Source of the DNA: a virus
Lineage: Duplodnaviria; Caudoviricetes
IMG/VR virus record: IMGVR_UViG_3300021066_000050
Coordinates: 1 to 44,825 of that record
Direction: 5' to 3' (one strand)
Length of the DNA stretch: 44,825 nucleotides
Shown here piece after piece: positions 11,826 through 40,553 of the stretch (its first letter is position 1; each line of letters begins with the position of its first letter). Under the pieces are notes generated by a model. The model saw only the letters and a list, made by a program, of their open reading frames with translations. It had not been told where the DNA came from and searched no databases. A program made the position numbers and the translations under genes.

Positions 11826-11965
11826 CCCCCTTGTTGAGGCTGATCGTACTCTCCGCTACCTACGATTCATCAGCTGAGAGGGTGTTTCACCTTCGATTCT
11901 TAGGCAGCATCCGCGCCCCGGTAGGGGTTCACCCGTCTTGAGCTGCAAAAACAGGCGAAGGCGGG

Positions 11966-12022
11966 GCGTGCAACGGACGGCCGGACGGCCGTTGCACGCA
12001 CCATAACCGGTATTATGGTGCG
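11966..12022. promoter_or_regulatory. two overlapping inverted repeats in the portal-protease intergenic region
   Basis: GCGTGCAACGG/CCGTTGCACGC (11966-11999) and CGCACCATAA/TTATGGTGCG (11997-12022). Confidence 0.55.
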
Positions 12023-12062
12023 CGCTTTCCTGCCCGAACGCGAGCGTCGTTCACGTTCTGAG

Positions 12063-14150: not shown

Positions 14151-14166
14151 GTGCCGCTCCGGGGGG

Positions 14167-14361
14167 TCAGGTGCCGCGTACGCGCCACTCCATGATCAGG
14201 CAGGAGATGCCGGCGGCGGCGAGGCCGGCGGGGGCGGACCATGCGGTCCAGGCGGCGGCGGAGAGCAGGGTGAGGCCGGTGGCGGCCCACGTGTAGGGGG
14301 CGGCGCGGCGGGCGGCGTGTCCGGCGCGGGCGGCGGCTGCGCGGGCGGTCTGGGTGGTCAC
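14167..14361 (-). CDS. small two-TM membrane protein
   Basis: 64 aa hydrophobic protein, GTGA overlap with the terL stop. Confidence 0.7.
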   Translation of the reverse strand: MTTQTARAAAARAGHAARRAAPYTWAATGLTLLSAAAWTAWSAPAGLAAAGISCLIMEWRVRGT

Positions 14362-15761
14362 CTGCGGCTCCGGCGCGCTGGGCCACCGAGGAACCGCACG
14401 CGGGGGCGGGCCGACAGGTCCACCTCGGCGACCAGGTAGCGCATCGCGTCCATGCCGTGATCATCCGCCTTAAACGGTTGCTCTTTCGGGGCCTTGCCCG
14501 CGCCAGTGTCCCAGACGTAGCCGGGGAACTCCTCCGCCGTGCAGGTCGGCTTGGACGCGTCGACCAACGCCGGGTCGCGCTCGACGACGGCGTCACGCAT
14601 CAGCAGCAGACGGGGGCGCCCGTCGCCGGCGGGACGCAGGCGCGTCTGCACGCCCTGGATACCGTCGCTGACGCTCTTGTGGGCGGCGACGGTGGACATG
14701 CCGAGGTGCCGCTCCAGGGTGGCCCGGTCCTCGGCGTCGTGGTCGCAGACGATCGCGCGGGGTTTCGGGCCGGTCCAGGTGCGGCCGTGGTGGGCGTAGC
14801 GGGGCCGGCCGGCGGGGTGCCGGTAGTCCGGATCGGGGCGGCTGACCTGGTCGAGGATTGTGATCGCGTGGTCCTCGACCAGGCGCTGCGTGTGGTACAC
14901 CTCCCACTCCAGCCACAGCCGGCCGTCGGGGTCCTCAGCCCAGCACTGGCAGACGAACGGGTTGGTGTAGCCGAAGTCGACGGCCCAGTAGCGGGTCCAG
15001 CCCGCGGGGAGGGGCACGCGGTCGACGAGGTGCACGGCCGGGTCGTACGTCTCGTAGATGACGCCCTCGGCGGCGACCCACAGGCCGCGGCGCAGCCGGT
15101 GGTAGCGAACGCCGGTGAGGTTGTCGAGCTTGCCGATGTAGGCCCGGCCGATGTCGGTGAGCTGGCCCTGGTCGTCGACGAGCACCGGATTGTCCTCGTG
15201 CCGGGACTCGACCATCCGGGTGGTGCCGGCGTCGCAGCGGCCCTTGAGCCAGTGCGCGGGGGTGTCCGGGTTGGTGTCGGCGATGATCTGCTGAAACGAG
15301 ATCCGGCCGTTGCGCAGGCGGGTGGTGATGGACTCCCAGTCGGTCAGGGTCAGCTCGATGGCCTCCTGCACGTACACGACGTCGTATTCGGAGGACATCA
15401 CACGCGTTGCCCGATCCATCCCCCCAACGACGATGACCGATCCGTTTGAGTACCTGTACGAGGGTGCTACCTGCGGGCTTCCTCCGTACCAATTGACCGT
15501 GCCGTTGGCCAAAGCTTCTTTCGCCACGTGCTCGCGGAAGGTAACCAGAGCTGTCGAACCGAGAGAGGCGAGTGTCTTCCGAACGATCAGCCCGCGCGCC
15601 CCTGGGTTCAGCAGCATCAACAGGTGCAGCTTTTCGAGGCACGCCCTCGATTTGCCCGTGCCAGCCGGTCCGCTCAGTAGCAGTTCAGGGTCTCGACACT
15701 CCATCAGCGCTTTGGCCGCACCGCGCGGTCTGTACTGGTGTGTCAGCCCTGCCGCGGTCAT
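14358..15761 (-). CDS. terL: terminase large subunit
   Basis: Walker A SGPAGTGKS, Walker B VYVQEA, DTNP, nuclease VDFGYTNP and DHGMDAMRY. Confidence 0.95.
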   Translation of the reverse strand: MTAAGLTHQYRPRGAAKALMECRDPELLLSGPAGTGKSRACLEKLHLLMLLNPGARGLIVRKTLASLGSTALVTFREHVAKEALANGTVNWYGGSPQVAPSYRYSNGSVIVVGGMDRATRVMSSEYDVVYVQEAIELTLTDWESITTRLRNGRISFQQIIADTNPDTPAHWLKGRCDAGTTRMVESRHEDNPVLVDDQGQLTDIGRAYIGKLDNLTGVRYHRLRRGLWVAAEGVIYETYDPAVHLVDRVPLPAGWTRYWAVDFGYTNPFVCQCWAEDPDGRLWLEWEVYHTQRLVEDHAITILDQVSRPDPDYRHPAGRPRYAHHGRTWTGPKPRAIVCDHDAEDRATLERHLGMSTVAAHKSVSDGIQGVQTRLRPAGDGRPRLLLMRDAVVERDPALVDASKPTCTAEEFPGYVWDTGAGKAPKEQPFKADDHGMDAMRYLVAEVDLSARPRVRFLGGPARRSRR

Positions 15762-16413
15762 CGCCCACCCCATGCAAGGTCAGGTAGGCGACAGCCGCCC
15801 TGAGTCGGGTCGGGTCCTCCTTGAAGAGCCCGATAGCCATGTTGCAGTTCGAGCAAAGCAGGCCACGTACGCAGCTGCCGCACGACTGCGCGCCGGGGCA
15901 GCACCTGTGATCGTGGTCGACAGCCAGAGACCTGGAGCTCTCGTTCTGGCCACCGCAGATTGCGCAGACGTCGCTCTGAGTCGACGCGAGCCGCTCGTAG
16001 TCCTCCAGCGATATTCCGTACCGCTGGGCGACGATTCTGTTTCTCTGGCATCTGCGGCACGAGCTCATCAGGCCGTCGGCTGTGCGGCCGTGTGCTCCGA
16101 ACTGGCCTGGGTCCAGCCACTGCTTGCAGGTCGCGCACCGCTTGCGTCCGTTCTCGTCTCGCAGCGCGGCGGGCACGCGGTCGTTGATGGGCGCAAGCTC
16201 CTGCCTCCGCCGATGCTGGGCGTAGTGGGTGGCGCACAGGCCTTTGCATGACTTCGGCCGGCTGCATCCAACGAACGAGCAACGGCCGGGTGCCTTGGCC
16301 TGGATCTCGACCGGCCCCGGGTTGCCATTTCTCTTCCAGCGTCGCCAGTGGGCATTGCAGTAGCCGGCGGCGTAGTGAGGCCGAAGGCAGCCGGCAAGTC
16401 CGCAGCGTTTCAC
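15685..16413 (-). CDS. endonuclease VII-family free-standing homing endonuclease
   Basis: CAICG..LAVDHDH..VRGLLCSNCNMAIG; N-terminal C..C..GxC..H repeats; overlaps the 5' end of terL. Confidence 0.9.
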   Translation of the reverse strand: MKRCGLAGCLRPHYAAGYCNAHWRRWKRNGNPGPVEIQAKAPGRCSFVGCSRPKSCKGLCATHYAQHRRRQELAPINDRVPAALRDENGRKRCATCKQWLDPGQFGAHGRTADGLMSSCRRCQRNRIVAQRYGISLEDYERLASTQSDVCAICGGQNESSRSLAVDHDHRCCPGAQSCGSCVRGLLCSNCNMAIGLFKEDPTRLRAAVAYLTLHGVGDDRGRADTPVQTARCGQSADGVSRP

Positions 16414-21227: not shown

Positions 21228-21811
21228 CGGGTGTCCCGGCCTCGGAGCCGACCGGCCTCGGCGAGCAGGGTCTTGGCGTGGCGCTCCCGGGCGGCGTCGT
21301 CCTCCCACCACGCTGCGGTCGAGCCGCGCGGGCTGGCGTTCCACTCCGGCACCGGGCGCATCGACGGGTCGTACGCGGGGTTCGGGACGGCTTCGGCCTG
21401 GCGCTGGGCGTGGCGGTGCTCGCGCTCCCAGGCGACGCGGCGAGGCATGAGGGCCTCGCGGCTGCCCTCAGGGGTGACCGAGCGCATCTGGCCGACGAAC
21501 GCCTGGATCTCGGCGGACCGGTCGGTGAGGGGGCCGGCCTGCGCGGCGTACGCCTCGATGGCGCGCTGCCGCTCCTGCTCGGCCTCCAGCTCGCGACGCT
21601 GCCGGCGCAGCTCGGTGGCGATCCGGCGGACGTGCACGGGCATGATCCGTTGCTCGCTGCCGGCGTAGTGCCGGGTGACGGCGGCGAGGGCGTCGGCGGG
21701 GTCGAGGTCCTGGAGGGCCTCGTGCCAGGCGAGGATGTCGGCCTGGCCCACGGTGCGCTGGTCGAACGCGGCGGCCTTGGCGAGCACGTTCGCGATGTCG
21801 ATGGGGGTCAT
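21224..21811 (-). CDS. putative helicase loader/inhibitor-type replication protein
   Basis: LAKAAAFDQRTVGQADILAW..AVTRHY..IMPVHV; directly after the initiator. Confidence 0.6.
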   Translation of the reverse strand: MTPIDIANVLAKAAAFDQRTVGQADILAWHEALQDLDPADALAAVTRHYAGSEQRIMPVHVRRIATELRRQRRELEAEQERQRAIEAYAAQAGPLTDRSAEIQAFVGQMRSVTPEGSREALMPRRVAWEREHRHAQRQAEAVPNPAYDPSMRPVPEWNASPRGSTAAWWEDDAARERHAKTLLAEAGRLRGRDTR

Positions 21812-22824
21812 GATCCGAGTGCCTTCCGGTCGAGTTCGGCTTGCAGGGCGGCGCCTGCGGCGAGGGCGGCGGCTACGCGCTGGTCCGTGGTGGAGGGCCG
21901 GCTAGCGGCGTGGTTGGCACGCATGGGGGTGCCGACGCCGGGGCCGGGCAGGTTGACCACGTTGGCGGGCAGCCGGTTGGCGATCTCGTCCACGAGGGAC
22001 GGCAGGGCTCCGGGGCCGAGCTTGCGGGGGCGGAGCTGGCCGAGCCCTTCGCGAATGTGGTCGGGGTGGAAGTCGTCGGCCAGGAGCTCGTAGACGTGCT
22101 GGGCGAGCTTGGCGGCGAGGGACCGGGAGACGCCGCGCGGGGAGTTCTCCCGGTACTCGGTCATGATCTGCTCGACCATCGATGGCTGTCCATCGGAGTC
22201 CGGCGGTTCGGCGTCGCGCGCGGTACGGCCTAGAGATGCGTACGGACCGTCAGTGGGGGTCTTGTTCTTACCTCTAACTCTCTCTTCGCGATCGCGCGCG
22301 GGAGAGTCGCTCGGACAGTCACGTGACACAAAATCTCTTTGCGCAGGTGAAGGCGCATCCGGTGTCCGACTTGCCGGACTAAACGTTGAGTAAGTTGTGT
22401 TTGTTAACTGTTCGCGTTGAGACCTTTCCGTTACCGAATCCGTCACGTGATCCGTCACGTGACGGTCACGTGACATCCGGGCCTCTTCCGCCCTGCGCTC
22501 CCGTTCGCGCCGCTTCCGCTCACGGTCGGCCCGGCGGCGCTCCGCCAATGCGTCCAGTTCGGACTGCCACGACTCCCACGACCGGATCTGCCAACCCCGG
22601 CGGGCGTCATCGCGCGACCACAGCCGCTCCCGCACCAGCGCGGCCACCCGGCCCTTGGTGGACTTGGGCGCAAGGCGCTCGGGGATGCCGTCGGGGATGA
22701 ATCCGCCGGTTTCCTCGCGCCCGCAGTAGGCGAGCGAGCGAGTGAAGAGGACCTCGGCGGCCTCGCCCGCGCGCATGATCGCGGCGTCGGTGTCGTACGA
22801 GGTGGAGAGCTTGACCCAGTCCAT
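21808..22824 (-). CDS. replication initiator protein
   Basis: MDWVKLS..GGFIP..GWQIRSWESWQ N-terminus, charged linker, internal iterons. Confidence 0.75.
   Translation of the reverse strand: MDWVKLSTSYDTDAAIMRAGEAAEVLFTRSLAYCGREETGGFIPDGIPERLAPKSTKGRVAALVRERLWSRDDARRGWQIRSWESWQSELDALAERRRADRERKRRERERRAEEARMSRDRHVTDHVTDSVTERSQREQLTNTTYSTFSPASRTPDAPSPAQRDFVSRDCPSDSPARDREERVRGKNKTPTDGPYASLGRTARDAEPPDSDGQPSMVEQIMTEYRENSPRGVSRSLAAKLAQHVYELLADDFHPDHIREGLGQLRPRKLGPGALPSLVDEIANRLPANVVNLPGPGVGTPMRANHAASRPSTTDQRVAAALAAGAALQAELDRKALGS
22318..22474. repeat. putative replication origin: palindromic iterons flanking an AT-rich tract
   Basis: GTCACGTGA(C) at 22318, 22442, 22454 and 22465; AT-rich 22380-22440. 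Confidence 0.7.
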
Positions 22825-29530: not shown

Positions 29531-29926
29531 GTGACTCAGGGGCCTGAACGGGGCGTGGCGTACGACTTCTGGTGGCGCGTGCGCACCGAACAGGACGCAC
29601 GCGGGTGGACAGACGACGAGCTACGCGCCCGATCCGGCATCGCCCGCACAACGGTCGACCGGCTCCAGGCCGGCAAGCGGCCACCCACCGCCCGCGTCGT
29701 CAACGCCCTCGCCGGCGCCCTCGACATCGACCTCACCGAGGCGCACCGGCTCGCCGGCCGCACGCCCGCCCCGCCGGCCACCGAGAGCGGCGAAGAAGAC
29801 GATCCTCGGGTGAGCGCCCGCGAGGCGATCCTGCGAGACCGGATCTACACAGACCAGCAGCGCAAGACGATGCTGGAACTGCTCGACATTTTCGACGAGG
29901 CCAACCGCAGCCGCCGTCAGGCCTGA
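29531..29926 (+). CDS. immunity repressor, XRE family (start 29525 or 29531)
   Basis: RGWTDDELRARSGIARTTVDRLQAG..LAGALDI; divergent from xis/cro. Confidence 0.85.
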   Translation: MTQGPERGVAYDFWWRVRTEQDARGWTDDELRARSGIARTTVDRLQAGKRPPTARVVNALAGALDIDLTEAHRLAGRTPAPPATESGEEDDPRVSAREAILRDRIYTDQQRKTMLELLDIFDEANRSRRQA

Positions 29927-31254
29927 CGGCCCGCCTTCCGGGCGTCCGCCACCGCGTCCACGGCGGCGTCGATCGCCTGCGGCATCAGGTCCCCGTAGAT
30001 CTCTGACGTCGTGGCGAGCTGCTGGTGGCCGAGCAGCCGAGAGATGGCCAGCGGCGTCATCCGAGGGTCGGAGAACAGCCAGGCGGCGTACGTGTGCCTC
30101 AGGTCGTGCCACGACGGGGCGCAGTGCAGCACATTCGGGCAGTCGCAGTCCGACACTGCGCCGACCCGGGGTCCGTAGTGTGCGGCGCAGCGGGTGGTGT
30201 TGGTGGCGACTCGGGCGCCGCATGGCTCACCCGCCCACGTCGTGCCGCCGTAGTCCCGGCACCGGCCGGTCGCGCCCTCCAGGCGCTCACCCTCACCGAC
30301 CGGTGGGTGCACGGGGCAGAGTCGGGCACGCAGCAGTGCCGGCTTCCACACCCGGTCGTACATCCGGTCGTAGTCCAACGCCTGGCCGTCGTCATCGCGG
30401 AAGACGAGGGTGTCCGGATGCGCGTCGTTGACGAGCTTGGCGAGGGCGGCGTGCAGGTCGGTGCCGACCGGGACCACCCGCTTGGCGCGGCCCTTCGTCG
30501 TGCCGAGGTACCTCTTCCCGCCGGCCTCCTTCCACGCCCGCCACACCTGGAGTCGAGGCCCCGCGCTGGCCGTCGCGGGGACCAGATGCTTCGCGGCCAG
30601 CGCGGTCACCTCCGACCAACGCATACCGGTCTCGACGATGCAGTCCAGCAACGGATGCCACCGCTTCGGGAACTGTGCGCGCAGCAGCTCGAAGTCGCGG
30701 GGCGTCAGGTAGACGGCATGGTGCTCGCCGGTGTCGTCGTCGGCCCGCTGGTCTCGGACGAAGTCCGTGCCATGGCACGGGTTCACGGCGATGTGCCCGT
30801 GGCGAACGGCAGCGGTCAGCGCGGTGTGCAGCAGCGAGTAGTAGCGCGTCACCGTCTTCTGGCTCATGGTCCCGCGCAGCTCGTTCAGCCAGGTGCCGAT
30901 GGCGACGGGCGTGATCTGCGACAGGGGAGTGTCACCGAAGGCGGGGTATATTCTGTCGCGGAGCTGCTGCTCGTATCGCTCTCGCGTTCCGGGTGAAATT
31001 CGTGTTTTCGACGGCAGCCATTCCTTACACCATTCCCGCAGTGTCGGGGAATTGTCGACAGGGGAATCGGTATCCCCCGTGGGAACGCCCATGTCGGCGT
31101 ACACGCGGTCGGCGGTGATCCGTCCTCGGTGGCCCTCGACGATCGCCTTGGCCTCGTTGGCGTACTCCTCGGCAGGCCACGTGGTGTATCGCTTCTGGCC
31201 GTCGTGCCGCCAGACGACCCGCCAAGAGTCCCCTCGTCGTTCGATGCTCGCCAC
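29917..31254 (-). CDS. int: tyrosine integrase
   Basis: TGMRWSE, TTKG, HDLRH, LGH, TSEIYG motifs; N-terminal arm-binding region. Confidence 0.96.
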   Translation of the reverse strand: MASIERRGDSWRVVWRHDGQKRYTTWPAEEYANEAKAIVEGHRGRITADRVYADMGVPTGDTDSPVDNSPTLREWCKEWLPSKTRISPGTRERYEQQLRDRIYPAFGDTPLSQITPVAIGTWLNELRGTMSQKTVTRYYSLLHTALTAAVRHGHIAVNPCHGTDFVRDQRADDDTGEHHAVYLTPRDFELLRAQFPKRWHPLLDCIVETGMRWSEVTALAAKHLVPATASAGPRLQVWRAWKEAGGKRYLGTTKGRAKRVVPVGTDLHAALAKLVNDAHPDTLVFRDDDGQALDYDRMYDRVWKPALLRARLCPVHPPVGEGERLEGATGRCRDYGGTTWAGEPCGARVATNTTRCAAHYGPRVGAVSDCDCPNVLHCAPSWHDLRHTYAAWLFSDPRMTPLAISRLLGHQQLATTSEIYGDLMPQAIDAAVDAVADARKAGRQA

Positions 31255-31390
31255 GGGGACAGATCATCGTCCCCATGGGGACACGGATCAAGCCTGGAGG
31301 GTCCGATGAAGTCCGTCAGGGTCACGGAACGCACAACATGAAACCGGACAATCTGTATCATGGCAGCTCATGGCAGGGGTAGCCGATCGG

Positions 31391-31433
31391 CTCATAATCC
31401 CTCGGTCACGGGTTCGAGTCCCGTCCGCCCCAC
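31391..31433 (+). other. att core: 3' half of a CAU-anticodon tRNA (Ile2/Met), not a complete tRNA
   Basis: CTCATAA anticodon loop, ACGGG-TTCGAGT-CCCGT T-arm, CCGCCCCACC acceptor strand; no pairing 5' half upstream. Confidence 0.85.
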
Positions 31434-31446
31434 CCTTGTTTACCAG

Positions 31447-31488
31447 GAGCAACGGCCCCCCGGAGTGATCTCCGAGGGGCCGTTGCTC
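31447..31488 (+). terminator. hairpin that would terminate the reconstituted host tRNA in the prophage
   Basis: GAGCAACGGCCCCCCGGAG-TGAT-CTCCGAGGGGCCGTTGCTC. Confidence 0.8.
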
Positions 31489-31519
31489 ACCGTGTGGGGA
31501 CACCCTGGGGACAGCGCCA

Positions 31520-31888: not shown

Positions 31889-32160
31889 GGCCAGCACCTC
31901 CACCGCAATGTCGTCGTCCCGCCCTCAGCACACTAGTACGATGCCGCGACGGGGCAACCGCGTAGCGTTCCTTTCCATAGGACAATCGTCATATGGGAGT
32001 GGCATGATCGGCTGCTCGATAGTGCGGCATCGCCGAACAGGTCCGACACATCCGACATGACTACTAGCGGCGTGTAACTGCTGGCGAACGCTGTGTTTCG
32101 TAGCCATTACACAGTCCGGTGAGTCCGGCGGATCGGGACAGCCTGGGCCCGTCGGGCAAG

Positions 32161-32571
32161 TCAGGCAGTTGATAGTTCAACCTGGTCACATCGGTACGGC
32201 CCGCGCAGACGCGCCCCTACCCGGATCTCGACCACCGGCACCACTATGCCCGGATCCACACCCAGCTCGGCGCGCTCCAGATCCGTGGGCATACGGATCA
32301 GGATCCGCGCGCCCCTAGGCACCCGGATCCGCTGCCGCTGCTGCTGCTCCACCACGCGCGTACCGTAACCGCGCTCGGTGACAACTAGGCCCTCCGTGCG
32401 CAGCACCTGCATTGCGCGCCGCACGGTGGGCAGGCTGATCCCGTGCTCCTGGGCGAGGCGACCCTCATAGGGCAGCAGGTTGCCGGGCGGGATCCGGCCG
32501 GACGTGATCTCAGCTCGCAGCAGGTCGGCGAGCTGGTGGTACAGGGCACGTCCCGTGCCGGGCCTGATCAC
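32161..32571 (-). CDS. GntR-family regulator (Kor-like), short C-terminal domain
   Basis: LYHQLADLLRAEITSG..LP.E..LAQEHGISLPTVRRAM..L..EGLV....GYGT. Confidence 0.9.
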   Translation of the reverse strand: MIRPGTGRALYHQLADLLRAEITSGRIPPGNLLPYEGRLAQEHGISLPTVRRAMQVLRTEGLVVTERGYGTRVVEQQQRQRIRVPRGARILIRMPTDLERAELGVDPGIVVPVVEIRVGARLRGPYRCDQVELSTA

Positions 32572-32675
32572 GCCCGGACGCTACGGACGGCCACGCCGCT
32601 AGAGGCATCAGGGCTGATGACCATATGCTCATACCCTGTCCGAGCTGGACAGACGCCCACCTCCCGGAGGCACCG

Positions 32676-32879
32676 ATGGCCGACCGCGAGCACCCCGCCC
32701 CCTGCCCCGGCGCGCACCCGGTGGCCCACGGCCGGCCGCCACTGCCCGACGGCCACACCGTCCCGCACCAGCCGCGGCCACCGCTGCCGGCCCTCACCCG
32801 CCAGCAGTGGGCGGCGGGCTGGGCGTGCGCCGCCGTCGTCCTGGCCCTGCTCGCCGCCGGCATTCTCGGCGTCTGGTGA
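32676..32879 (+). CDS. small single-TM protein
   Basis: GGAGG SD; C-terminal hydrophobic helix. Confidence 0.6.
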   Translation: MADREHPAPCPGAHPVAHGRPPLPDGHTVPHQPRPPLPALTRQQWAAGWACAAVVLALLAAGILGVW

Positions 32880-33049
32880 CTGTCGCTGAGGCCACCGTGC
32901 GGCTGTGGTGGCGGCTGATGATCCGGCACCGGCCCCTCGACGGCGTCTGCCCCGTCTGCCGGGTTCGGCGCTGCGGGGAGCGCACCTACGCCAGGACGGC
33001 GCTGATCGTCACCGGGGCATGGCACTTCGGGCCGCCAGCCGACCTGTGA
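32876..33049 (+). CDS. small H..CxxC..C protein
   Basis: GTGA overlap; RHRPLDGVCPVCRVRRC; followed by a terminator-like hairpin. Confidence 0.55.
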   Translation: MTVAEATVRLWWRLMIRHRPLDGVCPVCRVRRCGERTYARTALIVTGAWHFGPPADL

Positions 33050-33060
33050 GCACAGACGAC

Positions 33061-33091
33061 ACCGCCCCCGACCACGCTGGTCGGGGGCGGT
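33061..33091. terminator. hairpin terminator between convergent genes
   Basis: Perfect 14-bp stem ACCGCCCCCGACCA/TGGTCGGGGGCGGT. Confidence 0.8.
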
Positions 33092-33105
33092 TCTGCGTCA
33101 GGGGG

Positions 33106-33381
33106 CTACTGGCCGGCTTGGCGCACGCGGGCGAACCGGTTCCATACGCGCCGGCCGGTGCGCAGCCGCGAGCCTGAGCCCTTGCAGCGGCGGCACACCC
33201 GCCACACCTTCGAGTCGGCGCGGGCGAATCGTCCGTGGCCGTGGCAGCGGCGGCAGGGGGCGAACGGCCACCACCAGCACGACACGGCATACCCGACGGC
33301 GGCGAGCGTCAGAGCGCCCAGGAGCCAACCCCAGGGCATGGGGTGCTCCGGGGTAGCGGTAGCGGCGAGCAGGTGTCTCAC
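33106..33381 (-). CDS. TM protein with DnaJ-type CxxCxGxG zinc-ribbon repeats
   Basis: WWWPFAPCRRCHGHG..VCRRCKGSG; GGAGG SD. Confidence 0.75.
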   Translation of the reverse strand: MRHLLAATATPEHPMPWGWLLGALTLAAVGYAVSCWWWPFAPCRRCHGHGRFARADSKVWRVCRRCKGSGSRLRTGRRVWNRFARVRQAGQ

Positions 33382-33524
33382 GGGGCCTCCAGGGCTGGTT
33401 TTCGGGGTGCCGAGCGGGGGTCGTGCTACCCGCTACCCGCCAGGGTTTCCGCAGGTCGCGGGCTCCCGGCGGGTAGCGGCGGCCGGTAGCAGCTGTGCTA
33501 CCGGTAGCGCGGCGGGTGCTACCT
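33351..33524. repeat. clt-like locus: nine GGTAGC cores (8-mer SGGTAGCR) plus a 12-bp inverted repeat
   Basis: GGTAGC at 33352, 33358, 33472, 33485, 33503; GCTACC at 33425, 33432, 33497, 33518; lies at the 3' end of traB. Confidence 0.7.
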
Positions 33525-35624
33525 GGATTCGATCGCTCGGCGCTCGATCGCGGCCTCGACCGCGGCCTTGTCGCACCCCTGGCCCTTGCCGGACTCGAAG
33601 TGCTCCGGGTCGTGAACGGTCTTCCCGGCGACCCCCGCCTTGCGGACCATGGCACTGATCGCCTGGGGGGTGATGTCGGCGTACGCCTCCGGGTAGACCT
33701 CCCGCAGTCGGGCGGCCAGCGCCGGCCACGAGATCGTCGCCTTCCCCGCGTAGAAGACGTTCCGCACGTCGTTGAGCACGTCGCGGGCTTCCCGCGCCGC
33801 CTCCTCCCCGGCGGCCTCGCCGGACAAGGTGCCGAGGTGTTCCCGGTGGGCGCGGGCGGCCCGCAGAATCCGCTCGGCGTCAACGTGGGTGGCGAGGAAC
33901 GTCCGCACCGTCGGCGTCTCGTCGGTGACGCCGTACAGGTAGCCGACGCCCCGGTATTCGTCGCCTACGGGAAGGCTGGACGCGTCGAAGCCCTCCGCGT
34001 ACGCGTCGCCGCCGAGAACAGCCTCGGACACGATCCGGTTGCCGCACTTGAGCGCGAACCGGGCCGCGTGGTTGTCCCGGTACCGGTTGAACAGGCGGCC
34101 GACGTCCCCGGCGCCCACCCCGGACGGCTTCTGCGACGAGGACAGCAGGATCACCCCGGCAGATGGGCCGGTGGCGAGGATCCGCGACAGCATGGCCGCG
34201 ATCTCCTTGTTCGTGTCCTGGTCCTCGGTTTCGAAGTAGACCTGGAACTCCTCCATGACCAGCAGCCACACCCGCAGGTCCGGGTACCGCGGGTCGCGGG
34301 CCAGCTCCTCGGTGAGCTTCCCCTCCGGGCACACGTCGGCGGGCAACTGCGACAGCACCTGGTTGACGCGGTCGATGTGCTTGAGGACCTCCCGCAGTGC
34401 GGCGAGCAGGTGCCCGATCGGGTCGTTGTCGCGGGGGTTCGGGTGGGTGCCGAAGATGATCCGGTGCGCGACCAGCCGGAACTTGTCCCAGTCGGGGCTG
34501 TTCTTGCCGTCGACCACGATCAGTTTCACCCACGGGTCCAGGGCGGCGTGTAGGGCGAGCAAGCGGGCGGAGAACGTCTTGCCCTTGCGGGGCTGTGCGC
34601 CGACCAGCACCGACGTCCACATCAGCGACAGCTCGACGAGGCGGTCCCGCTCGTCCTTGCCGAACTTCACCGGCCGCCAGATGGAGCGGGGCTTGCAGTC
34701 CAACAGCGGCGTGCGGCCCACCGGGACAGCCAGGGGGTCACGGTCGGCGACGAACAGCAGGTGCCGCCGGTTCGACGACTTGTCGCGGGTGAGGAACACC
34801 TGGTTCTCATGCACGTCGAGGCCGGACGCGAGCTTCTCCTTGGCGTTGACCACGTCGGACCAGCTCTTGCCGTAGGGCAGGTCCACCAGCACCTGCGACC
34901 CGGTTTCACGCTGGTCGCGGGCCATGGGGCCGCCGAACTCGACCTGCTGGTCGCGCTTGTCGGGGTGGCCGAGGCCGGCGGCGTAGTAGGCACGCAGCAC
35001 GATGTCGGGGTTGAGCTTGCGGTACCGGTGCGCGACGACGGCGGGTTGCACGATGGGCCGAGTCTGCGGCCGGCCGTAGTGGGCGAGCACGGGCACCAGC
35101 GCCCCGCCGGTAGCCAGCACTACCCAGCCGGGGGCGGCGGCGAGCAGGCCGAGGGCGACGAGCAGCAGCACGCCCTCACCGGCCAGGACCATGCCGCGGT
35201 AGAGGCGGATGGCGCGGGCCTCCCGGGTGAGCCGCGACCAGGTGTCGGGGTCGTTGCGGTTGGCCGCTTCCTGCCGCAGGTGTTCCTGCTCGGCCACCCA
35301 CCACCAGCGCACCTGCCGGCCGGCGAGGCGGGCGACGCCGACGACGGACCACAGCAGCGCCAGCGCGGCGTACTTCGGTGCGCGCACGGCGTGGTAGGCG
35401 GCGATGTGGCCGGTCACCTCGGCCTTGCGTTTGACGGTGGCCTTGATGTTGTCGGGGCCGCGCCACTGGGCCGGGATGACGGGGTGGCGGGTGTCGTCCC
35501 GGGTGACGACGTCGACGTAGACGGGCTCGCGGGGCGGGTTCGGCTCGTCGTCGAGGGCAATCTCGTAGTGGGTGTCGTGCGGCTCGCCCTGGTCAAGGTC
35601 GTCGCGCTGGATCTGGTCGGTCAT
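33519..35624 (-). CDS. traB: FtsK/SpoIIIE-family TraB-like DNA translocase
   Basis: GAGGAG SD; N-terminal TM pair; Walker A GAQPRKGKT, VDGK, Walker B LVMEEFQ, SSQKP, RFAL, GVGYL; C-terminal winged-helix-like domain. Confidence 0.85.
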   Translation of the reverse strand: MTDQIQRDDLDQGEPHDTHYEIALDDEPNPPREPVYVDVVTRDDTRHPVIPAQWRGPDNIKATVKRKAEVTGHIAAYHAVRAPKYAALALLWSVVGVARLAGRQVRWWWVAEQEHLRQEAANRNDPDTWSRLTREARAIRLYRGMVLAGEGVLLLVALGLLAAAPGWVVLATGGALVPVLAHYGRPQTRPIVQPAVVAHRYRKLNPDIVLRAYYAAGLGHPDKRDQQVEFGGPMARDQRETGSQVLVDLPYGKSWSDVVNAKEKLASGLDVHENQVFLTRDKSSNRRHLLFVADRDPLAVPVGRTPLLDCKPRSIWRPVKFGKDERDRLVELSLMWTSVLVGAQPRKGKTFSARLLALHAALDPWVKLIVVDGKNSPDWDKFRLVAHRIIFGTHPNPRDNDPIGHLLAALREVLKHIDRVNQVLSQLPADVCPEGKLTEELARDPRYPDLRVWLLVMEEFQVYFETEDQDTNKEIAAMLSRILATGPSAGVILLSSSQKPSGVGAGDVGRLFNRYRDNHAARFALKCGNRIVSEAVLGGDAYAEGFDASSLPVGDEYRGVGYLYGVTDETPTVRTFLATHVDAERILRAARAHREHLGTLSGEAAGEEAAREARDVLNDVRNVFYAGKATISWPALAARLREVYPEAYADITPQAISAMVRKAGVAGKTVHDPEHFESGKGQGCDKAAVEAAIERRAIESR

Positions 35625-35649
35625 GCTGGTGTCTCCTCTGCCAGGAGGT

Positions 35650-35681
35650 GCGGGGCCCGACCGGGTGTGGTCGGGCCCCGC
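35650..35681. other. intergenic hairpin upstream of traB
   Basis: GCGGGGCCCGACC/GGTCGGGCCCCGC, perfect 13-bp stem. Confidence 0.7.
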
Positions 35682-35689
35682 GTGGTGGG

Positions 35690-35812
35690 TTACTTCGGGT
35701 CGGTGGCCTTGCAGCAGCGGCAGGTACGGCCGCCGTTGAGCGGGGCGCAGGCGCATCCGCAGGACAGGCAGCCGCCGACGTGGGGGCAACCGCACTGCGT
35801 GCAGCGGGCCAT
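35690..35812 (-). CDS. 40-aa Cys-rich, metallothionein-like peptide
   Basis: MARCTQCGCPHVGGCLSCGCACAPLNGGRTCRCCKATDPK; TGATG coupling to the upstream gene. Confidence 0.55.
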   Translation of the reverse strand: MARCTQCGCPHVGGCLSCGCACAPLNGGRTCRCCKATDPK

Positions 35813-35997
35813 CAGCGGCGGCCCTTGAGCTGCTGAGAGAGCAGCCCGTAGCGGATGCGCTCGTCTTCGTCGAGGACGGTCGGGGTGCGTCCGGCGGCCC
35901 GCTCCTCGCGGAGCTGCTTGTCGAGGTTCTTCGGGTCGACCTTGATCTCACGCGAGCGGCCGGTGGCGTCCGTGCTGAACAGGTACTTCTTGCCCAT
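35812..35997 (-). CDS. small hypothetical protein
   Basis: 61 aa, GGAAGGA SD. Confidence 0.7.
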   Translation of the reverse strand: MGKKYLFSTDATGRSREIKVDPKNLDKQLREERAAGRTPTVLDEDERIRYGLLSQQLKGRR

Positions 35998-36089
35998 GAC
36001 GGGTTCCTTCCGTTGGGGGCGGCCAGGGGGTCTGGCTGCCTCCGCGTGCCGCCGGGGTGATGGCCCCGGCGGCCACGGGGGCGTTCAGA

Positions 36090-36272
36090 TCACTTCCGCC
36101 GCTCGATGTAGCCGCCCTCGCTCTTGCCGCCGTGCATGCGCTTGTTGTGGCCGATGACGTCCTTGTTGGCGTCATCCATGGTCTTGCGGGCGGGGCCGTA
36201 CATGTCGTGGCTGGAGCAGCCGCCCCGGTACTCCCGGTCCTCGCCCTTGTCCTTCTTGCTGAACAGGCCCAT
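36090..36272 (-). CDS. small hypothetical protein (C..H...H...H)
   Basis: MGLFSKKDK..., GAGAGGGG SD. Confidence 0.7.
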   Translation of the reverse strand: MGLFSKKDKGEDREYRGGCSSHDMYGPARKTMDDANKDVIGHNKRMHGGKSEGGYIERRK

Positions 36273-36294
36273 CGGGGCCCCCTCTCGTCGTGCC

Positions 36295-36373
36295 GTCCAG
36301 TCGGTCTGGCCGGTCCCGCGTGGGCATCCGGTGATGGGCGGATGCCCCACGGGGGCGGTCAGACCGACTGGAC
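36295..36373. other. long intergenic stem-loop
   Basis: GTCCAGTCGGTCTG..GGGCATCCG/CGGATGCCC..CAGACCGACTGGAC. Confidence 0.7.
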
Positions 36374-36387
36374 CAGCGCGGCGGCGC

Positions 36388-36570
36388 TCACCGCTGCCAC
36401 CAGGGCAGTACGGTCCGGGCGGCCTGCTCGGCGTCGTCCAGGCGGCGCTGGGCGTCCGCGAGCGCGGCCGGGTCGGCGTCGAGGCGGCTGCTGATGCGCT
36501 CCAGGTCCCGCCCCGCGTCGGCCAGCTCCCGGGCGGCCTGGCGGCGAGCGTCGGCGGTCGGCTTCTTCAC
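36388..36570 (-). CDS. small helical protein
   Basis: 60 aa, GGGAGG SD, GTGA overlap, ends PWWQR. Confidence 0.65.
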   Translation of the reverse strand: MKKPTADARRQAARELADAGRDLERISSRLDADPAALADAQRRLDDAEQAARTVLPWWQR

Positions 36571-37532
36571 GGCCGGCCTCCCGTCCGCAGCGCCTTCTCA
36601 TGGCGGTAGAGCTGGTCAACCAGCGCGGTCGACGCCCGCCACTTCCGCTCAGTCAGCGCCTCGCGCATCCGCCGCCGGAACTCCCGCAGGCTCGGCGGGT
36701 CCTCGTCCACCTCGGCGGCGGCGTACACCTCGGCGGCCAGCAACTGGAGGGCCTTGTCGTCGGGCGTGCCGTAGTCGTCTCCCACCCGTGCCACACCCGC
36801 GCCGTCAGGCGTGCCACCAGCCGTGACAGCCGGAACGGTCAGCGAGTCGAGCAGCCCGCGAATGTCGTCGTCGGAGATCAACCCGAACGACGGCAGTTCA
36901 CCGGCCGGCACGGTGTCGGCGGTATCGGCGGCACGGTCCATCAAGGCCGCTTCGTAGGCCCGGCGGGCGGCGTCGACCTCGGCGTGCGCCTTGACGCGGG
37001 AGCGGTACTCCCGGGCCGTGTGCTCGGCGCCAACCGACTCGCTGAGGGCCTTCACCTCGTCTATGGCGCGGGCCACCGCCACGGCGTCGCGGCCCCGGGA
37101 GCGCACCAGGTCGACCTTCCGCTGGGCGTCGGCGGTGATCCGCACGGCCGCCGTGGACATGGCCATCTGCAAGGTCAGCTTGCCGAGCACGGGGATGGTC
37201 GCGCCGATGATGGCGATGGGAACGGTGGTGACGATCAACCCGTGCAGCAGCACGGCGGCGACGGACACGGCCAGCAGCACCCAGCCGAGGACGGCAGGGG
37301 TGCGGGAGGCGGACGCGGACCGGCGGTGCGCCCGCTCGTGCAGCATCGCGGACACCCACACGAGGTCGAAGAGGGCCCCGGCGCTGTACGCCACCCACGA
37401 GGGGGCCTGCGTGTCGAGCAGACCGCCGACGGCCACGAGAGTCCACACGACGGCGATCGCGGTCAACGCGAGGGGCAGCCCCCACAGGACGCCGGTCTGG
37501 ACGGCGTTGACGGTGTTGGCGCGGCCGGTCAC
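36567..37532 (-). CDS. SpdB-like spread protein (4 TM + coiled coil + C-terminal domain)
   Basis: GTG 37532; four hydrophobic helices (AYSAGALFDLVWVSAM, LGWVLLAVSVAAVLLHG), then helical region; same operon as traB. Confidence 0.65.
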   Translation of the reverse strand: MTGRANTVNAVQTGVLWGLPLALTAIAVVWTLVAVGGLLDTQAPSWVAYSAGALFDLVWVSAMLHERAHRRSASASRTPAVLGWVLLAVSVAAVLLHGLIVTTVPIAIIGATIPVLGKLTLQMAMSTAAVRITADAQRKVDLVRSRGRDAVAVARAIDEVKALSESVGAEHTAREYRSRVKAHAEVDAARRAYEAALMDRAADTADTVPAGELPSFGLISDDDIRGLLDSLTVPAVTAGGTPDGAGVARVGDDYGTPDDKALQLLAAEVYAAAEVDEDPPSLREFRRRMREALTERKWRASTALVDQLYRHEKALRTGGRP

Positions 37533-37780
37533 CGGGTCACCGCCTCGGCCGAGGGGGCCGGGGCCGGGCGCTGCGCCGGGACGGCCTGCTGGACCTGCTC
37601 GCGGCGGTGGGTCGCGGTAGCGATGGCGAACGCGGACCCGGCGGCGGCGAGCGTCGGAATGGTCAGGCCGGCCAGGACGAGACGCACGTCGGCCGGTCCG
37701 GGCGGCAGGGCGATCGCGGACTGCCACACGCCGATGAAGACGGCGGCACCGACCGTGTGGCTGGCGACGAGACGGAACAT
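37529..37780 (-). CDS. small two-TM protein (Spd-like)
   Basis: MFRLVASHTVG..., coupled start/stop. Confidence 0.6.
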   Translation of the reverse strand: MFRLVASHTVGAAVFIGVWQSAIALPPGPADVRLVLAGLTIPTLAAAGSAFAIATATHRREQVQQAVPAQRPAPAPSAEAVTR

Positions 37781-37935
37781 CAGGACTCCAGGGAGATCGA
37801 GACGCACATACCGGCCGCACCCACCTCGGCGGGGCTGCACGGCTGCGTCGTGTGGTTGTGGTGGAACGCCAGGGCCGCGAGCACGGCGCAGACGCCGACG
37901 ACGCGGTAAACCAAGCGGTTGATGCGGGCAGCCAT
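37780..37935 (-). CDS. small single-TM protein
   Basis: MAARINRLVYRVVGVCAVLAALA; GAGGAG SD. Confidence 0.55.
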   Translation of the reverse strand: MAARINRLVYRVVGVCAVLAALAFHHNHTTQPCSPAEVGAAGMCVSISLES

Positions 37936-38013
37936 GACGGCTCTCCTCACGGCGAGGGGTGGGCAAGCTGAGAGGGCCCGGCGACACGACGGCATGCCGC
38001 CGGGCAGGGTGGG

Positions 38014-38199
38014 TCAGCGCTTGGGCTTGCTGGCGCGGCGGCCGATGCCGGCCAGGGTGGCGTCCTGCGTCCGGTACGCCATCTCGTACGTGGCGCCCGG
38101 GTCGTTCACCGGCTTGGCCTGGCCGTAGGCGACCTCACCGATCTTCGGGTCGTACTCGGGCGGCTGCGGGGGCTTGCCCTTGTGGTGGAAAATGCTCAT
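38014..38199 (-). CDS. small hypothetical protein, first gene of the tra-like operon
   Basis: 61 aa, GAAGGAG SD. Confidence 0.7.
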   Translation of the reverse strand: MSIFHHKGKPPQPPEYDPKIGEVAYGQAKPVNDPGATYEMAYRTQDATLAGIGRRASKPKR

Positions 38200-38286
38200 G
38201 GGTCGACTCCTTCACAGTCGATCCGAGGCCCCTGGCCAGCGCCGGAATCGCTGGTCAGGGGCCGCCTTCGTTCTCTGGCGACTCCC

Positions 38287-38331
38287 AATGTAGTGGGTAC
38301 CTTGTCATGGCGTCAAGGTACCCACTACAGT
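38287..38331. promoter_or_regulatory. 16-bp palindromic operator overlapping divergent promoters
   Basis: TGTAGTGGGTACCTTG-N9-CAAGGTACCCACTACA; minus TTGACG-N18-TACATT; plus TTGTCA-N18-TACAGT. Confidence 0.8.
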
Positions 38332-38364
38332 CATGTTTGCAAGGGCACCCCTTACGATCACGAG

Positions 38365-38637
38365 GTGGAGAATCCGTTGGCCGACATCGACGACATCGAA
38401 CAGATCGCCGACCCCGCAGAGCGGGCCAGGCAGGCAGGTCAGCGCCTCGCCGCCGTCCCCGTCTGGCAGGAACGGCTGCGCAAGATCCGGCAGGCCGCCG
38501 TGGTGGAGATGAAGGCCCAGAACATGAGCTATGCCGACATCGGCCGCGAGCTGGGCCTGCACCGCAACCGCATCCAGCAGATCCTGGAAGGCCGGTCCGC
38601 CGGCGGCAAGGGCGGGAAGGTGGAGGCCGCCGAGTGA
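38365..38637 (+). CDS. HTH regulator divergent from the tra-like operon
   Basis: MSYADIGRELGLHRNRIQQIL; TACGAT lies 6 nt before the GTG. Confidence 0.8.
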   Translation: MENPLADIDDIEQIADPAERARQAGQRLAAVPVWQERLRKIRQAAVVEMKAQNMSYADIGRELGLHRNRIQQILEGRSAGGKGGKVEAAE

Positions 38638-38843
38638 CCGCCATGGAGATCCCGACCTGCCTGTACCGCCAGGCTGCCGCCGAGGCGGGCGAGCGGGCCG
38701 ACGAGGCCGACCGGAAGTTGTGGGAGGCGGTGGAGTCGGCACGGGCTGCCGGTGTGCCTGACGTGCTGCTCTGCGAGCGGACGGGGGTCAGCCGGGCCAC
38801 GCTCAACCGTCGGCTCGGCCCCCGCAAGTCCAAGGCTGCTTGA
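38634..38843 (+). CDS. second small HTH protein
   Basis: ARAAGVPDVLLCERTGVSRATLNRRL; GTGA overlap. Confidence 0.7.
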   Translation: MTAMEIPTCLYRQAAAEAGERADEADRKLWEAVESARAAGVPDVLLCERTGVSRATLNRRLGPRKSKAA

Positions 38844-38860
38844 TCGACTGAACACGGCAA

Positions 38861-38896
38861 AGCGCCCCCACTGCCAGACGTGGCAGTGGGGGCGCT
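38861..38896 (+). terminator. hairpin terminator
   Basis: AGCGCCCCCACTGCCA-GACG-TGGCAGTGGGGGCGCT. Confidence 0.8.
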
Positions 38897-38914
38897 GTCG
38901 TTGGCCTGCCTTGC

Positions 38915-38957
38915 TGTAGTGGGGGGCTTGTCAAACTGCCAAGGTACCCACTACACT
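38915..38957 (+). promoter_or_regulatory. second copy of the operator/promoter
   Basis: TGTAGTGGGGGGCTTG-N9-CAAGGTACCCACTACA; TTGTCA-N18-TACACT. Confidence 0.75.
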
Positions 38958-38990
38958 TGGGCTACAGGCAAGCGAGCGAGGGAGACGGAC

Positions 38991-39173
38991 ATGGCGAACA
39001 TCGACTGCGAGATCTGCGGCAAGGCCGGCGCCCGCGAGGTCCCCGCCCCCAGCGGCGGCACGATGGAAGCATGCCGGGGCTGCGAGCAGAAGGAGTGGAA
39101 GCGGGCCGCCATCGACGCCCGGTACGCCGAGCTGGCCGACCTCACCGACGCCGAGCTGGCCCTGGCCGCCTGA
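38991..39173 (+). CDS. small CxxC..CxxC protein
   Basis: MANIDCEICG..EACRGC; GAGGGAG SD; own promoter and terminator. Confidence 0.75.
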   Translation: MANIDCEICGKAGAREVPAPSGGTMEACRGCEQKEWKRAAIDARYAELADLTDAELALAA

Positions 39174-39188
39174 CCCCGGACAGCACGA

Positions 39189-39227
39189 AGCGCCCCCGCC
39201 CGGCCGTAAGGCCAGAGCGGGGGCGCT
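39189..39227. terminator. hairpin terminator between convergent genes
   Basis: AGCGCCCCCGC..GCGGGGGCGCT. Confidence 0.65.
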
Positions 39228-39278
39228 GTCGTAGCTGGACGGTGCCGACACGGGGGAGCCGGCACCGCGCCGACGAGC

Positions 39279-39509
39279 CTACCGGCTCGCTGACACCAGG
39301 CTCGGCGAGTTCGGCTCGCCAGCACCGACCGACACGACCGACGTGAGCAGCGACAGCACCGCCGCGCCCGCCGCCACACCACCGGCCGTCACCCAGTCGG
39401 CGTCCCACGCGGAGAACACCGCGTCGCCACCCCAGAGAAGCAGCAGGGCCTGAGCCGCGCTCTTCCCCGCCCGCTCGGCGGCGGCCTTCCAGAACTTCGT
39501 GGTGAACAT
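39279..39509 (-). CDS. holin (r1t-like)
   Basis: MFTTKFWKAAAERAGKSAAQ..AAVLSLLTSVVS..SPSL; AGGAGG SD. Confidence 0.85.
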   Translation of the reverse strand: MFTTKFWKAAAERAGKSAAQALLLLWGGDAVFSAWDADWVTAGGVAAGAAVLSLLTSVVSVGAGEPNSPSLVSASR

Positions 39510-39522
39510 CAGTACCTCCTGG

Positions 39523-39819
39523 TCAAGTGGTGAACTTGGGCAGCAGCCCGATGGCCAGGGCGGCCAGGGCAACGAGCAGGGACGCGGCCGGCAGCGGCCA
39601 CTGTCGGGCCTCGACGGCACGTATCCGGCTCTCCAGGTCGGCGATCCGGGGCGCGGGCCGCACCTCTTCGACGACCCGGAGGCGGGTTTCGTGGTCGCGT
39701 AGGTCCTCGCCGTGGCCGTCGCTCTGGCTGGTGAGCCGGTCGACGGACGCGGTGAGCCGGATCAGGGCGTCGTAGATGTCGCGGCCGGTGATCTGCACGG
39801 GGCCGAACGGGTCGGTCAC
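39523..39819 (-). CDS. lysis-cassette coiled-coil protein with C-terminal TM
   Basis: DHETRLR..DLESRIRAVE..WPLP + TM; GTGA overlap. Confidence 0.75.
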   Translation of the reverse strand: MTDPFGPVQITGRDIYDALIRLTASVDRLTSQSDGHGEDLRDHETRLRVVEEVRPAPRIADLESRIRAVEARQWPLPAASLLVALAALAIGLLPKFTT

Positions 39820-40553
39820 GACGTCGCCGGGGCCGCGGTGACCTCGCCGGTGATGAGCAGCCGGGTCGGCAGCGGCGCCGGCTGGCCACCGCCGAACTTG
39901 ACCGCCATCGCCTGCATGAACTGGGCGTACGTGTGGGCGTCGTAGACGTCGCCGGAGGTCTGCTTGCTGCCGACGGAGCGGCGCACGGCCAGCACCGCCG
40001 CCGACGTGACCGGCCCATACTGGCCGTCCTCCGCGATCGGCCCGCTGGCGCTCAGCAGCAGCATGTTGCACATGACCTGGACGGCCTGGACGTGCTCGCC
40101 GGAGTCGCCGAGTTTGCAGAACATGAGCTTTCCCCCTGTGCTGGTCAGCCCCCACGGGCTGGTGTCGTCGTAGGGTCCGGTGCTGCGCCCGTCCGGGCCG
40201 GTGCCGACGGAGACGTGCATGTGCTTGGTGTGCGGGTTGGAGCCGGTGTATGTCCGCCACGCCCATCCCGACGAGGCCGACGCGATCCGCCGGTTCCAGA
40301 TCACGTACTTGAGTGCCGGGTGACGGCGGGTGCGGATGTGCTCGGCGATGCGGTGCATGTCCGCGCCGTGGGCGGGGTCGTGGGTGAGGTCCAGGGCGCA
40401 CACCACCCCGGCCGCGTTGGGGTTGTGGTCGGACGCGCCGGACTGGTGGGCCGTGTCGCCGATGGTGCCGTCGGACGCCTTCGACCTGCCCGGGGCCAGC
40501 GCGTTGACCTCGGCGCGCAGCACCTCCAAGGAGCGGGCCAGCCGCCAGCTCAT
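39816..40553 (-). CDS. endolysin (putative Zn-peptidase domain + peptidoglycan-binding domain)
   Basis: IGDTAH...SDHNP..CALD..YVIWNRRI..NPHTKHMHVS; LGDSGEHV..DGQYGP; upstream of the holin. Confidence 0.85.
   Translation of the reverse strand: MSWRLARSLEVLRAEVNALAPGRSKASDGTIGDTAHQSGASDHNPNAAGVVCALDLTHDPAHGADMHRIAEHIRTRRHPALKYVIWNRRIASASSGWAWRTYTGSNPHTKHMHVSVGTGPDGRSTGPYDDTSPWGLTSTGGKLMFCKLGDSGEHVQAVQVMCNMLLLSASGPIAEDGQYGPVTSAAVLAVRRSVGSKQTSGDVYDAHTYAQFMQAMAVKFGGGQPAPLPTRLLITGEVTAAPATS

Follow-up and report, generated by a model that had tools for sequence, protein, structure and literature searches.

A predicted TraB/clt/Spd-type transfer module inside a temperate Micromonospora-type phage genome

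The predicted transfer genes and the repeat array

IMG/VR record IMGVR_UViG_3300021066_000050 is one virus record of 44,825 bp and about 71% GC, analysed here over its whole length (the window). Between its holin gene and its phage attachment site (attP) lies a predicted DNA transfer module of the TraB/clt/Spd kind, composed of ten minus-strand open reading frames (ORFs) that run from 38199 to 33106 and overlap at four junctions (gaps along the operon of 78, -1, -4, -4, 115, 92, -1, 65 and 137 nt). Its principal parts are as follows.

33519..35624, minus strand: TraB-type FtsK/SpoIIIE double-stranded DNA (dsDNA) translocase, 701 aa, assigned by PHROG, fold and tree
33352..33523, no strand assigned: clt-like array in which the GCTACC core occurs nine times, in either orientation, together with a GACCTGCGGAAAC element, from the repeat statistic
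36567..37532, minus strand: SpdB-family multi-transmembrane (TM) protein, 321 aa, predicted spreading partner, by SpdB_N/HTH_SpdB_C
33106..33381, minus strand: TM and CxxC zinc-finger protein, 91 aa, of no named family, constant companion of this TraB clade

An earlier note made from the sequence had described such an operon, with an uninterrupted FtsK/SpoIIIE ATPase, a multi-TM protein, a cluster of 8-mer repeats, a TM zinc-ribbon gene, and an operator of its own beside divergent helix-turn-helix (HTH) genes; all are present, some in refined form. The ATPase has no internal stop and its true start lies at 35624, the 810-aa ORF from 35951 beginning too early. Searches of Pfam, NCBIfam and PDB sequences returned no match, and the assignment therefore rests on PHROG (FtsK/SpoIIIE, E 5e-20), on the tree given below and on fold, the top Foldseek matches of the AlphaFold model (predicted local distance difference test, pLDDT, 83.9) being FtsK motors and the TcpA coupling protein. 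Identity to TraB of pSVH1 is 29% (E 2e-23). The Walker A (AQPRKGKT) and Walker B (LLVMEEFQ, hhhhEEFQ) motifs are intact, and one clear hydropathy peak at residue 152 suggests an N-terminal membrane anchor. The C-terminal 85 residues (616-700) are modelled as helices and a beta-hairpin, and may be read as a winged HTH domain.

The repeat cluster reduces to an invariant 6-mer, GCTACC, which occurs nine times within a degenerate 8-mer, five times on one strand and four on the other, in an array lying over the traB stop and the beginning of the following gene. Of the 67 gene ends in the window, this one gives the strongest repeat signal (ln p -31, the runner-up having -12.6), and the same statistic recovers GACCCGGA behind pSVH1 traB. 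Ranked against the rest of its locus, the top hexamer behind traB reaches the top 5% in 18 of 27 phage rows (duplicates L001/L025 and L023/L024 included), in 56 of 64 rows from integrative and conjugative elements of actinomycetes (AICEs) and in 7 of 10 unassigned rows. Across 95 loci the core is GCTAC in 73, GCGAC in 8, GGCAC in 5, GTTAC in 4, GTTCC in 3 and CCTAC in 2, and within a locus the core variant differs in all copies together. Of 683 alignment columns, those of residues 680 and 669 track the core best; both residues lie in the hairpin modelled at the C-terminus, where an insertion in the window's own protein makes the alignment uncertain. This co-variation fits direct reading of the array by TraB, which it supports and does not show.

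An element of GACCTGC(G) type is seen at 33447-33460 and inside most clt-like arrays of any core, and a similar word stands near the repressor start, at about 29480. Under a loose pattern GACCTGC is mildly enriched (61 of 99 loci versus 42% expected), and the element is a possible second, shared binding site.

The 321-aa protein is placed in the SpdB_N/HTH_SpdB_C families by Atlas score (0.97), with a precomputed PF27080 assignment, and displays three hydropathy peaks, one of them spanning enough for two helices and one weak; tblastn against plasmids gave no match for it. Of the 23 viral records, 20 have the TM zinc-finger gene behind traB, as do 62 of 64 AICE loci. The gene has a weak DnaJ_CXXCXGXG match and no family in Atlas, and may be an unstudied core part of the TraB transfer system.

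The carrier phage and control of the operon

Judged from its genes, the carrier is a near-complete, integrating temperate tailed phage of a soil actinomycete, of Micromonospora type (CheckV completeness 96%). End repeats are absent from the 44,825-bp window, and both of its ends fall in the same tail gene, so that the window can be read as an almost closed circle. No interruption is seen in the terminase, portal, capsid, tail, lysis or immunity genes, and RecE/RecT, replication initiator, repressor, integrase and holin likewise are uninterrupted and match their own families. The completeness of head, tail, lysis and terminase genes, as claimed earlier, thus stands, except that the two contig ends cut through one tail gene and that the lysin candidate has an unnamed PHROG as its sole match.

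31391..31435, plus strand: unbroken attP core of 45 bp, an exact match to the 3' half of a tRNA-Met(CAT) gene from Micromonospora
29917..31254, minus strand: tyrosine integrase, the sole integrase in the window, by family match
9328..15773, minus strand: terminase large subunit, portal, Clp-type protease and major capsid protein, uninterrupted, each matching its own family
39279..40553, minus strand: lysis cassette with r1t-type holin, 98-aa TM gene and lysin candidate, by family and PHROG matches
21808..22824, minus strand: phage replication initiator, phrog_2447, E 8e-23

The tRNA-Met(CAT) gene matching the attP core is that of M. carbonacea. Phage DNA flanks the 45-bp match on both sides, which identifies it as attP and places the DNA in its excised order. 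Positions 28500-44811 are covered without any difference by a contig of 44,811 bp from run X1, which may be where the window comes from; contigs of run X2 cross attP and part of the module, and attP is crossed without difference in both runs. Prim-Pol, RepAM, AAA_25 and DUF3987 have no match in the window, RepSA not having been searched with its own profile, and when 382 AICE-type replication (Rep), coupling, Spd and integrase proteins were compared with the window, the single integrase was the only match. Relaxase and type IV secretion system (T4SS) genes were not seen in scans of the window, neither having been searched with dedicated profiles, and ParAB had no match among the window proteins scanned, not every small ORF being among them. 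The earlier statement that no second integrase is visible holds. Given one integrase, no AICE replication gene and an attP, the module lies inside the excising unit. Among the tail genes a PhoD-like phosphodiesterase gene is found (41069-42346); the plasmid-phage pZL12 carries a phosphodiesterase gene close to those for lysis and tail.

The remaining genes and sites of the operon and its surroundings are listed below.

37529..38199, minus strand: first three operon genes, of 61 aa (soluble), 51 aa and 83 aa (both hydrophobic), Spd-like by size and position
35690..36570, minus strand: four small ORFs between spdB and traB (60, 60, 61 and 40 aa), from the ORF list
38287..38331, no strand assigned: predicted palindromic operator with 18-bp arms and back-to-back promoters
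38365..38843, plus strand: pair of divergent HTH genes (90 aa and 69 aa), which may encode repressors of the operon
38915..39173, plus strand: second operator copy (38915-38955) with a promoter and a 60-aa CxxC..CxxC gene
32161..32571, minus strand: GntR-family regulator, 136 aa, of a TraR/KorA-like family, downstream of the operon, E 1e-16
39180..39240, minus strand: strong hairpin behind the holin gene, -50 kcal/mol, terminator-like
33050..33105, minus strand: hairpin at the operon end, -38 kcal/mol

The 61- and 51-aa genes at the head of the operon recur in the same slot of related prophages, and the 61-aa ORF between spdB and traB is also found upstream of traB in AICEs. The operator, the only AT-rich palindrome of its kind in the window, carries TTGACG-N18-TACATT toward the operon and TTGTCA-N18-TACAGT toward the HTH genes; four sigma70-like promoter sites are found, versus 0.1 in shuffles. 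The second divergent HTH gene occupies the same slot in G001, G070, G068 and G044, and the GntR gene the same place in G001, G004, L031, G070 and G044. A divergent GntR-type TraR/KorA repressor is not found at the operon promoter: the divergent genes encode HTH proteins of non-GntR type and the GntR gene lies downstream, which makes the earlier label 'Kor' a loose one, regulation in trans being possible. The hairpin at 39180..39240, which has no U-tail and was not picked up by the terminator scan, would insulate the module from the late operon.

Relatives, selection and exchange of the cassette

Of 7,995 proteins scored, at least 1,073 match the ATPase with an E value of 1e-50 or lower. The alignment search gave 23 viral records and 132 genome hits, of which the best 80 were kept; these comprise 64 AICE-like, 3 phage-like and 13 unassigned loci. 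The joint occurrence of terminase, capsid and traB, which the earlier note had proposed surveying, is seen in 16 of the 23 viral records, together with portal. Most of the remaining seven have an incomplete rating, and six of these seven carry labelled tail or lysis genes. Twenty of the 23 were analysed over all or nearly all of their length, the other three over the traB locus. With the window included, the viral records form 8 capsid, 5 portal and 3 terminase clusters; direct terminal repeats are present in three of the 23 and a labelled integrase in 12. None of the 23 has Prim-Pol/RepAM-xis-int behind traB, one having a phage primase 16 kb off. The gene is full-length in 22, the remaining copy being cut by a contig end.

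As the earlier note had supposed, the ATPase groups with AICE and plasmid TraB proteins and away from chromosomal FtsK (support 99-100), in trees with 2-4 FtsK rows, 2-3 plasmid TraB rows and long outgroup branches. Monophyly of the phage copies is rejected in a 34-row tree (approximately unbiased test, p-AU 1.8e-59). In a 48-row tree, which left out pZL12, G022, pPaSha2, the unassigned rows and 14 AICE rows, the window falls within a 16-row all-phage group (SH-like approximate likelihood ratio test, SH-aLRT, 95). No donor is claimed, because FastTree put the phage copies basal to AICEs and IQ-TREE did not, and the rows come from the best 80 of 132 hits.

Between the window and the 97%-identical traB of L001/L025, a prophage of M. 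carbonacea DSM 43168, the ratio of nonsynonymous to synonymous substitution rates (dN/dS) is 0.086 (Sd 89.5, Nd 23.5). Eleven other pairs of differing phage-type or unassigned copies give 0.17-0.54 by the Nei-Gojobori method, in which GC bias pushes dS too low at depth; one pair is identical. One small gene (60 codons) has a dN/dS of 1.3. By the traB ratios and the full-length copies, the module is under purifying selection and not decayed.

Capsid, terminase and portal of the DSM 43168 prophage have no significant BLASTP match to those of the window, and a 97%-identical TraB beside unmatched head genes indicates that the cassette has moved between unrelated phages. The converse case, a constant phage with a changed pump, is G044. 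Its capsid (98% identical) and terminase (89%) agree with those of the G001/L025 prophage, as do the small genes alongside and the tRNA-His site, but its TraB is only 29% identical and is followed by TAGAGGGG-type repeats, a different array. G068 carries a third TraB clade in the same slot. From these comparisons, pump and array appear to be replaced in place between related prophages.

Outside viral records, 38 of 121 Micromonospora genomes contain 60 TraB places; the 41 examined are 37 AICEs and 4 prophages (G024, G070, G068 and G044). In INPHARED the window ATPase matches none of 50,697 records, and searches with the TraB proteins of pSVH1 and G044 returned weak FtsK-like genes only. FtsK-like genes have been described in two Streptomyces phages (PMC13587820).

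Several relatives have features of their own. pPaSha2 (L197, CP052773) is filed as a 41.9-kb plasmid of Pseudonocardia alni and is actually a circular phage, with terminase, portal and capsid genes and with integrase, DUF2637, FtsK and holin genes in a row. L250 (18387-18461) and L254 (19072-19145) are TraB-bearing prophages with a tRNA-Met(CAT) gene of their own near terminase, its anticodon being that of the tRNA used by the window's phage for integration. In the Micromonospora AICEs L220-L226 the integrase gene lies upstream of the tra operon and the replication gene is a fused DUF3987 gene, versus the usual tra-rep-xis-int order. The AICEs L066, L077, L078 and L079 carry a gene for a TraG/VirD4-type coupling protein upstream of traB, and so two different DNA-transfer ATPases per operon. 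P0078 is a 1,066-aa homologue of the ATPase with a precomputed PF14528 assignment, a LAGLIDADG endonuclease family, which suggests an intein in this traB.

Known systems and competing explanations

Among the known systems closest to the module are the transfer regions of the Streptomyces plasmid pSVH1 and of pSG5, pIJ101 and pWTY27. The likeness lies in an FtsK-like ATPase with a predicted membrane anchor, a repeat array that follows its gene directly, an SpdB-family gene and small genes located upstream within one operon, a GntR gene nearby and no relaxase or T4SS seen. The window differs in an ATPase only 29% identical over the motor, an EE Walker B, a two-way 6-mer core, non-GntR divergent regulators and an integrating tailed phage, rather than a rolling-circle plasmid, as carrier. 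In pSVH1, TraB alone is described as crucial for transfer and the spd genes as serving spreading (PMC4447253). The prediction that the module works like TraB/clt/Spd is well supported.

With AICEs of the Prim-Pol/RepAM type (pMEA300/pSE211-like) the window shares the TraB clade (55-69% identity), the GCTAC core, the zinc-finger gene and a tRNA-targeting tyrosine integrase. Unlike them it lacks Prim-Pol, RepAM and DUF6284 and has a phage replication initiator with head, tail and lysis genes. AICEs as defined and surveyed (te Poele 2008, PMC2440964; Ghinet 2011, PMC3218068; PMC9513070) combine an integrase and a tRNA attachment site, which the window has, with an absence of virion genes, whereas terminase, portal, capsid, tail and holin are present here. 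Plasmid-phages that both conjugate and form particles exist (PMC4170104; reviewed in PMC12282955; for clt make-up and the tra genes of pZL12, PMC3583192). Virion genes and a tra gene stand on one replicon in the window as in plasmid-phages, but free-plasmid lysogeny (Rep with iterons, ParAB) is not indicated, integrase and attP being present. The Streptomyces plasmid-phage pZL12/phiZL12 reportedly conjugates and forms phage (work ascribed to Zhong, 2010), and pFP4 is said to be another plasmid-phage (Chen, 2012, as cited elsewhere). Like the window, pZL12 is the genome of a tailed phage that encodes a GntR regulator and an FtsK/SpoIIIE tra gene; unlike it, pZL12 is a 90-kb ParAB plasmid, the window being integrative, 45 kb long and with no par genes seen. 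The TraA of pZL12 has no BLASTP match to the window ATPase. The phage thus belongs neither to AICEs nor to plasmid-phages of the plasmid type, each lacking a defining feature in it.

Two other temperate actinophages that integrate at tRNA genes are comparable, pMLP1 of Micromonospora (AY150027, compared over 2 kb of sequence) and phiNon1 of Nonomuraea. pMLP1 also replicates freely. The integrase of the TraB-bearing DSM 43168 prophage is 51-60% like IntM and its attP arm 89% like that of pMLP1; the two were found not to be the same phage, nucleotide identity of int being 66%. phiNon1 is also present as a circle, at copy number 17 (PMC5431353); another element in print is pSLE1 (PMC4487206). A TraB gene on phiNon1 itself was not supported, the match in the Nonomuraea chromosome being an AICE.

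What the sequences show is the set of parts, its position within one att-bounded genome, that the parts are conserved and that they have been exchanged repeatedly. The explanation toward which we lean is that TraB pumps the excised phage circle into neighbouring hyphae without virions, which is, on balance, likely. The divergent HTH pair or the GntR protein would repress the operon at the 38287-38331 operator. After infection or excision, the replication initiator of the phage would copy the circle, taking the role that Rep has in an AICE. Membrane-anchored TraB rings would then load at the GCTACC array through the C-terminal domain and translocate dsDNA into a touching hypha, SpdB and the small membrane proteins would spread it across the recipient's cross-walls, and the integrase would fix the circle at tRNA-Met. 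The intact head, tail and lysis genes would stay as a long-range route.

A number of observations weigh against this explanation. Once kinship is counted, residue 680 follows the core in the same way in 5.7 of 7 pairs and in none the opposite way (median p 0.03, for a column picked afterwards), residue 669 gives p 0.6, and the co-variation is weak; neighbouring DNA swapped together would yield the same signal. The repeats face both ways, unlike the direct 8-mers described for plasmid clt (PMC4447253), although inverted repeats are also contained in the clt sites of pWTY27, pIJ101 and pJV1 (PMC3583192). Arrays are absent behind traB in pPaSha2, pZL12, G022 and G023. Walker B reads EE, not DE, as it also does in 63 of 63 AICE copies, and no experimentally characterised TraB closer than about 29% to the window ATPase was found. 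The AICEs of this TraB clade are known here from sequence alone. In close relatives spdB is swapped for unrelated membrane genes, and the operator is not conserved, six of eight relatives scanned having no such palindrome and the other two unrelated ones. Among the window genes found, none accounts for excision and copying without lysis; transfer might instead occur early in infection, ahead of lysis. Distribution is patchy as well: none of 31 PF04860 portal places in the 121 Micromonospora genomes, whose drafts are fragmented and of which 9 candidates each were scored, shares a contig with a TraB match, so that by this survey most sampled Micromonospora prophages carry no TraB module. The earlier note had named decay or sporadic occurrence as grounds for doubt; the module is not decayed, but it is sporadic in this genus.

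TraB and Spd could also act within one mycelium only, moving circles across cross-walls and into sporulating hyphae, with virions needed between colonies. All conservation results fit this equally well, and sequence cannot separate it from transfer between mycelia. SpdB2 homologues on some actinophages have been suggested to help spread phage DNA, TraB takes part in spreading (both PMC4447253), and spreading can serve as a stability function (PMC4170104). Against it, AICEs, which cannot travel by virion, use this TraB clade, repeat core and zinc-finger gene too, and in plasmids TraB and clt suffice for transfer between mycelia (PMC3583192, PMC4447253). Confinement to one mycelium is the main rival and is judged rather unlikely. 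An effect on the host or on competitors appears improbable. Here TraB of the integrated prophage would mobilise the chromosome, or TraB/Spd toxicity or the array would interfere with incoming AICEs and phages. The cassette's own promoter and its accessory position between holin and att suit such a role, as do the toxicity of unregulated traB and the mobilisation of chromosomal markers by TraB (PMC4170104, PMC4447253) and the frequency of AICEs of the same repeat core in related actinomycetes. The array, however, lies in cis directly behind traB and changes together with it, which is what phage DNA as the substrate would predict. To our knowledge no tested defence system has such a make-up (PADLOC was not searched), which also counts against it.

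A captured AICE remnant, as the earlier note had offered for an alternative, or a tandem AICE-prophage insertion or assembly chimera, in each case functionless now, is very improbable and largely refuted. AICE accretion at tRNA sites is common (PMC9513070), and the rarity of prophages among the examined Micromonospora TraB places, the empty portal survey and the one small gene with a raised dN/dS would all suit such an origin. The genome has, however, one att, one integrase and no AICE Rep; the X1 contig runs through 28500-44811 unchanged and X2 contigs span attP and part of the module; and purifying selection, full-length copies, the deep all-phage branches and in-place replacement also speak against such an origin. 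The earlier idea of a conjugative phage is partly supported, and as a concept it has a precedent in plasmid-phages that conjugate. What is new beside printed precedents such as pZL12 is the integrative form, the repeated swapping of cassettes with AICEs and a cultured strain; a literature search that did not extend to subscription journals and supplements turned up no paper describing a TraB-clt cassette on integrating phages.

More tentatively, and falling somewhat short of probable, TraB-clt-Spd integrating actinophages may form a large and old dual-route class that arose many times, conjugating like AICEs, lysing like phages and trading cassettes of pump and docking site among themselves and with AICEs, with a spread within and between mycelia that needs no receptor and does not kill the donor. 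AICE surveys keyed on Int, Tra and Rep genes set such elements aside as remnants or prophages (PMC3218068) and INPHARED holds no match, so the class could be missed from both sides. The sequenced strain M. carbonacea DSM 43168, with its 97%-identical pump, and pPaSha2, with a related cassette, make the idea testable, and the natural repeat variants are a ready panel for how TraB reads its site. If such transfer takes place, a prophage could move through a colony and into its neighbours without lysis or a surface receptor, which would change models of lysogeny, phage resistance and gene flow in antibiotic-producing soil bacteria. Should the dual-route class be real, phages and AICEs would be two ends of one continuum.

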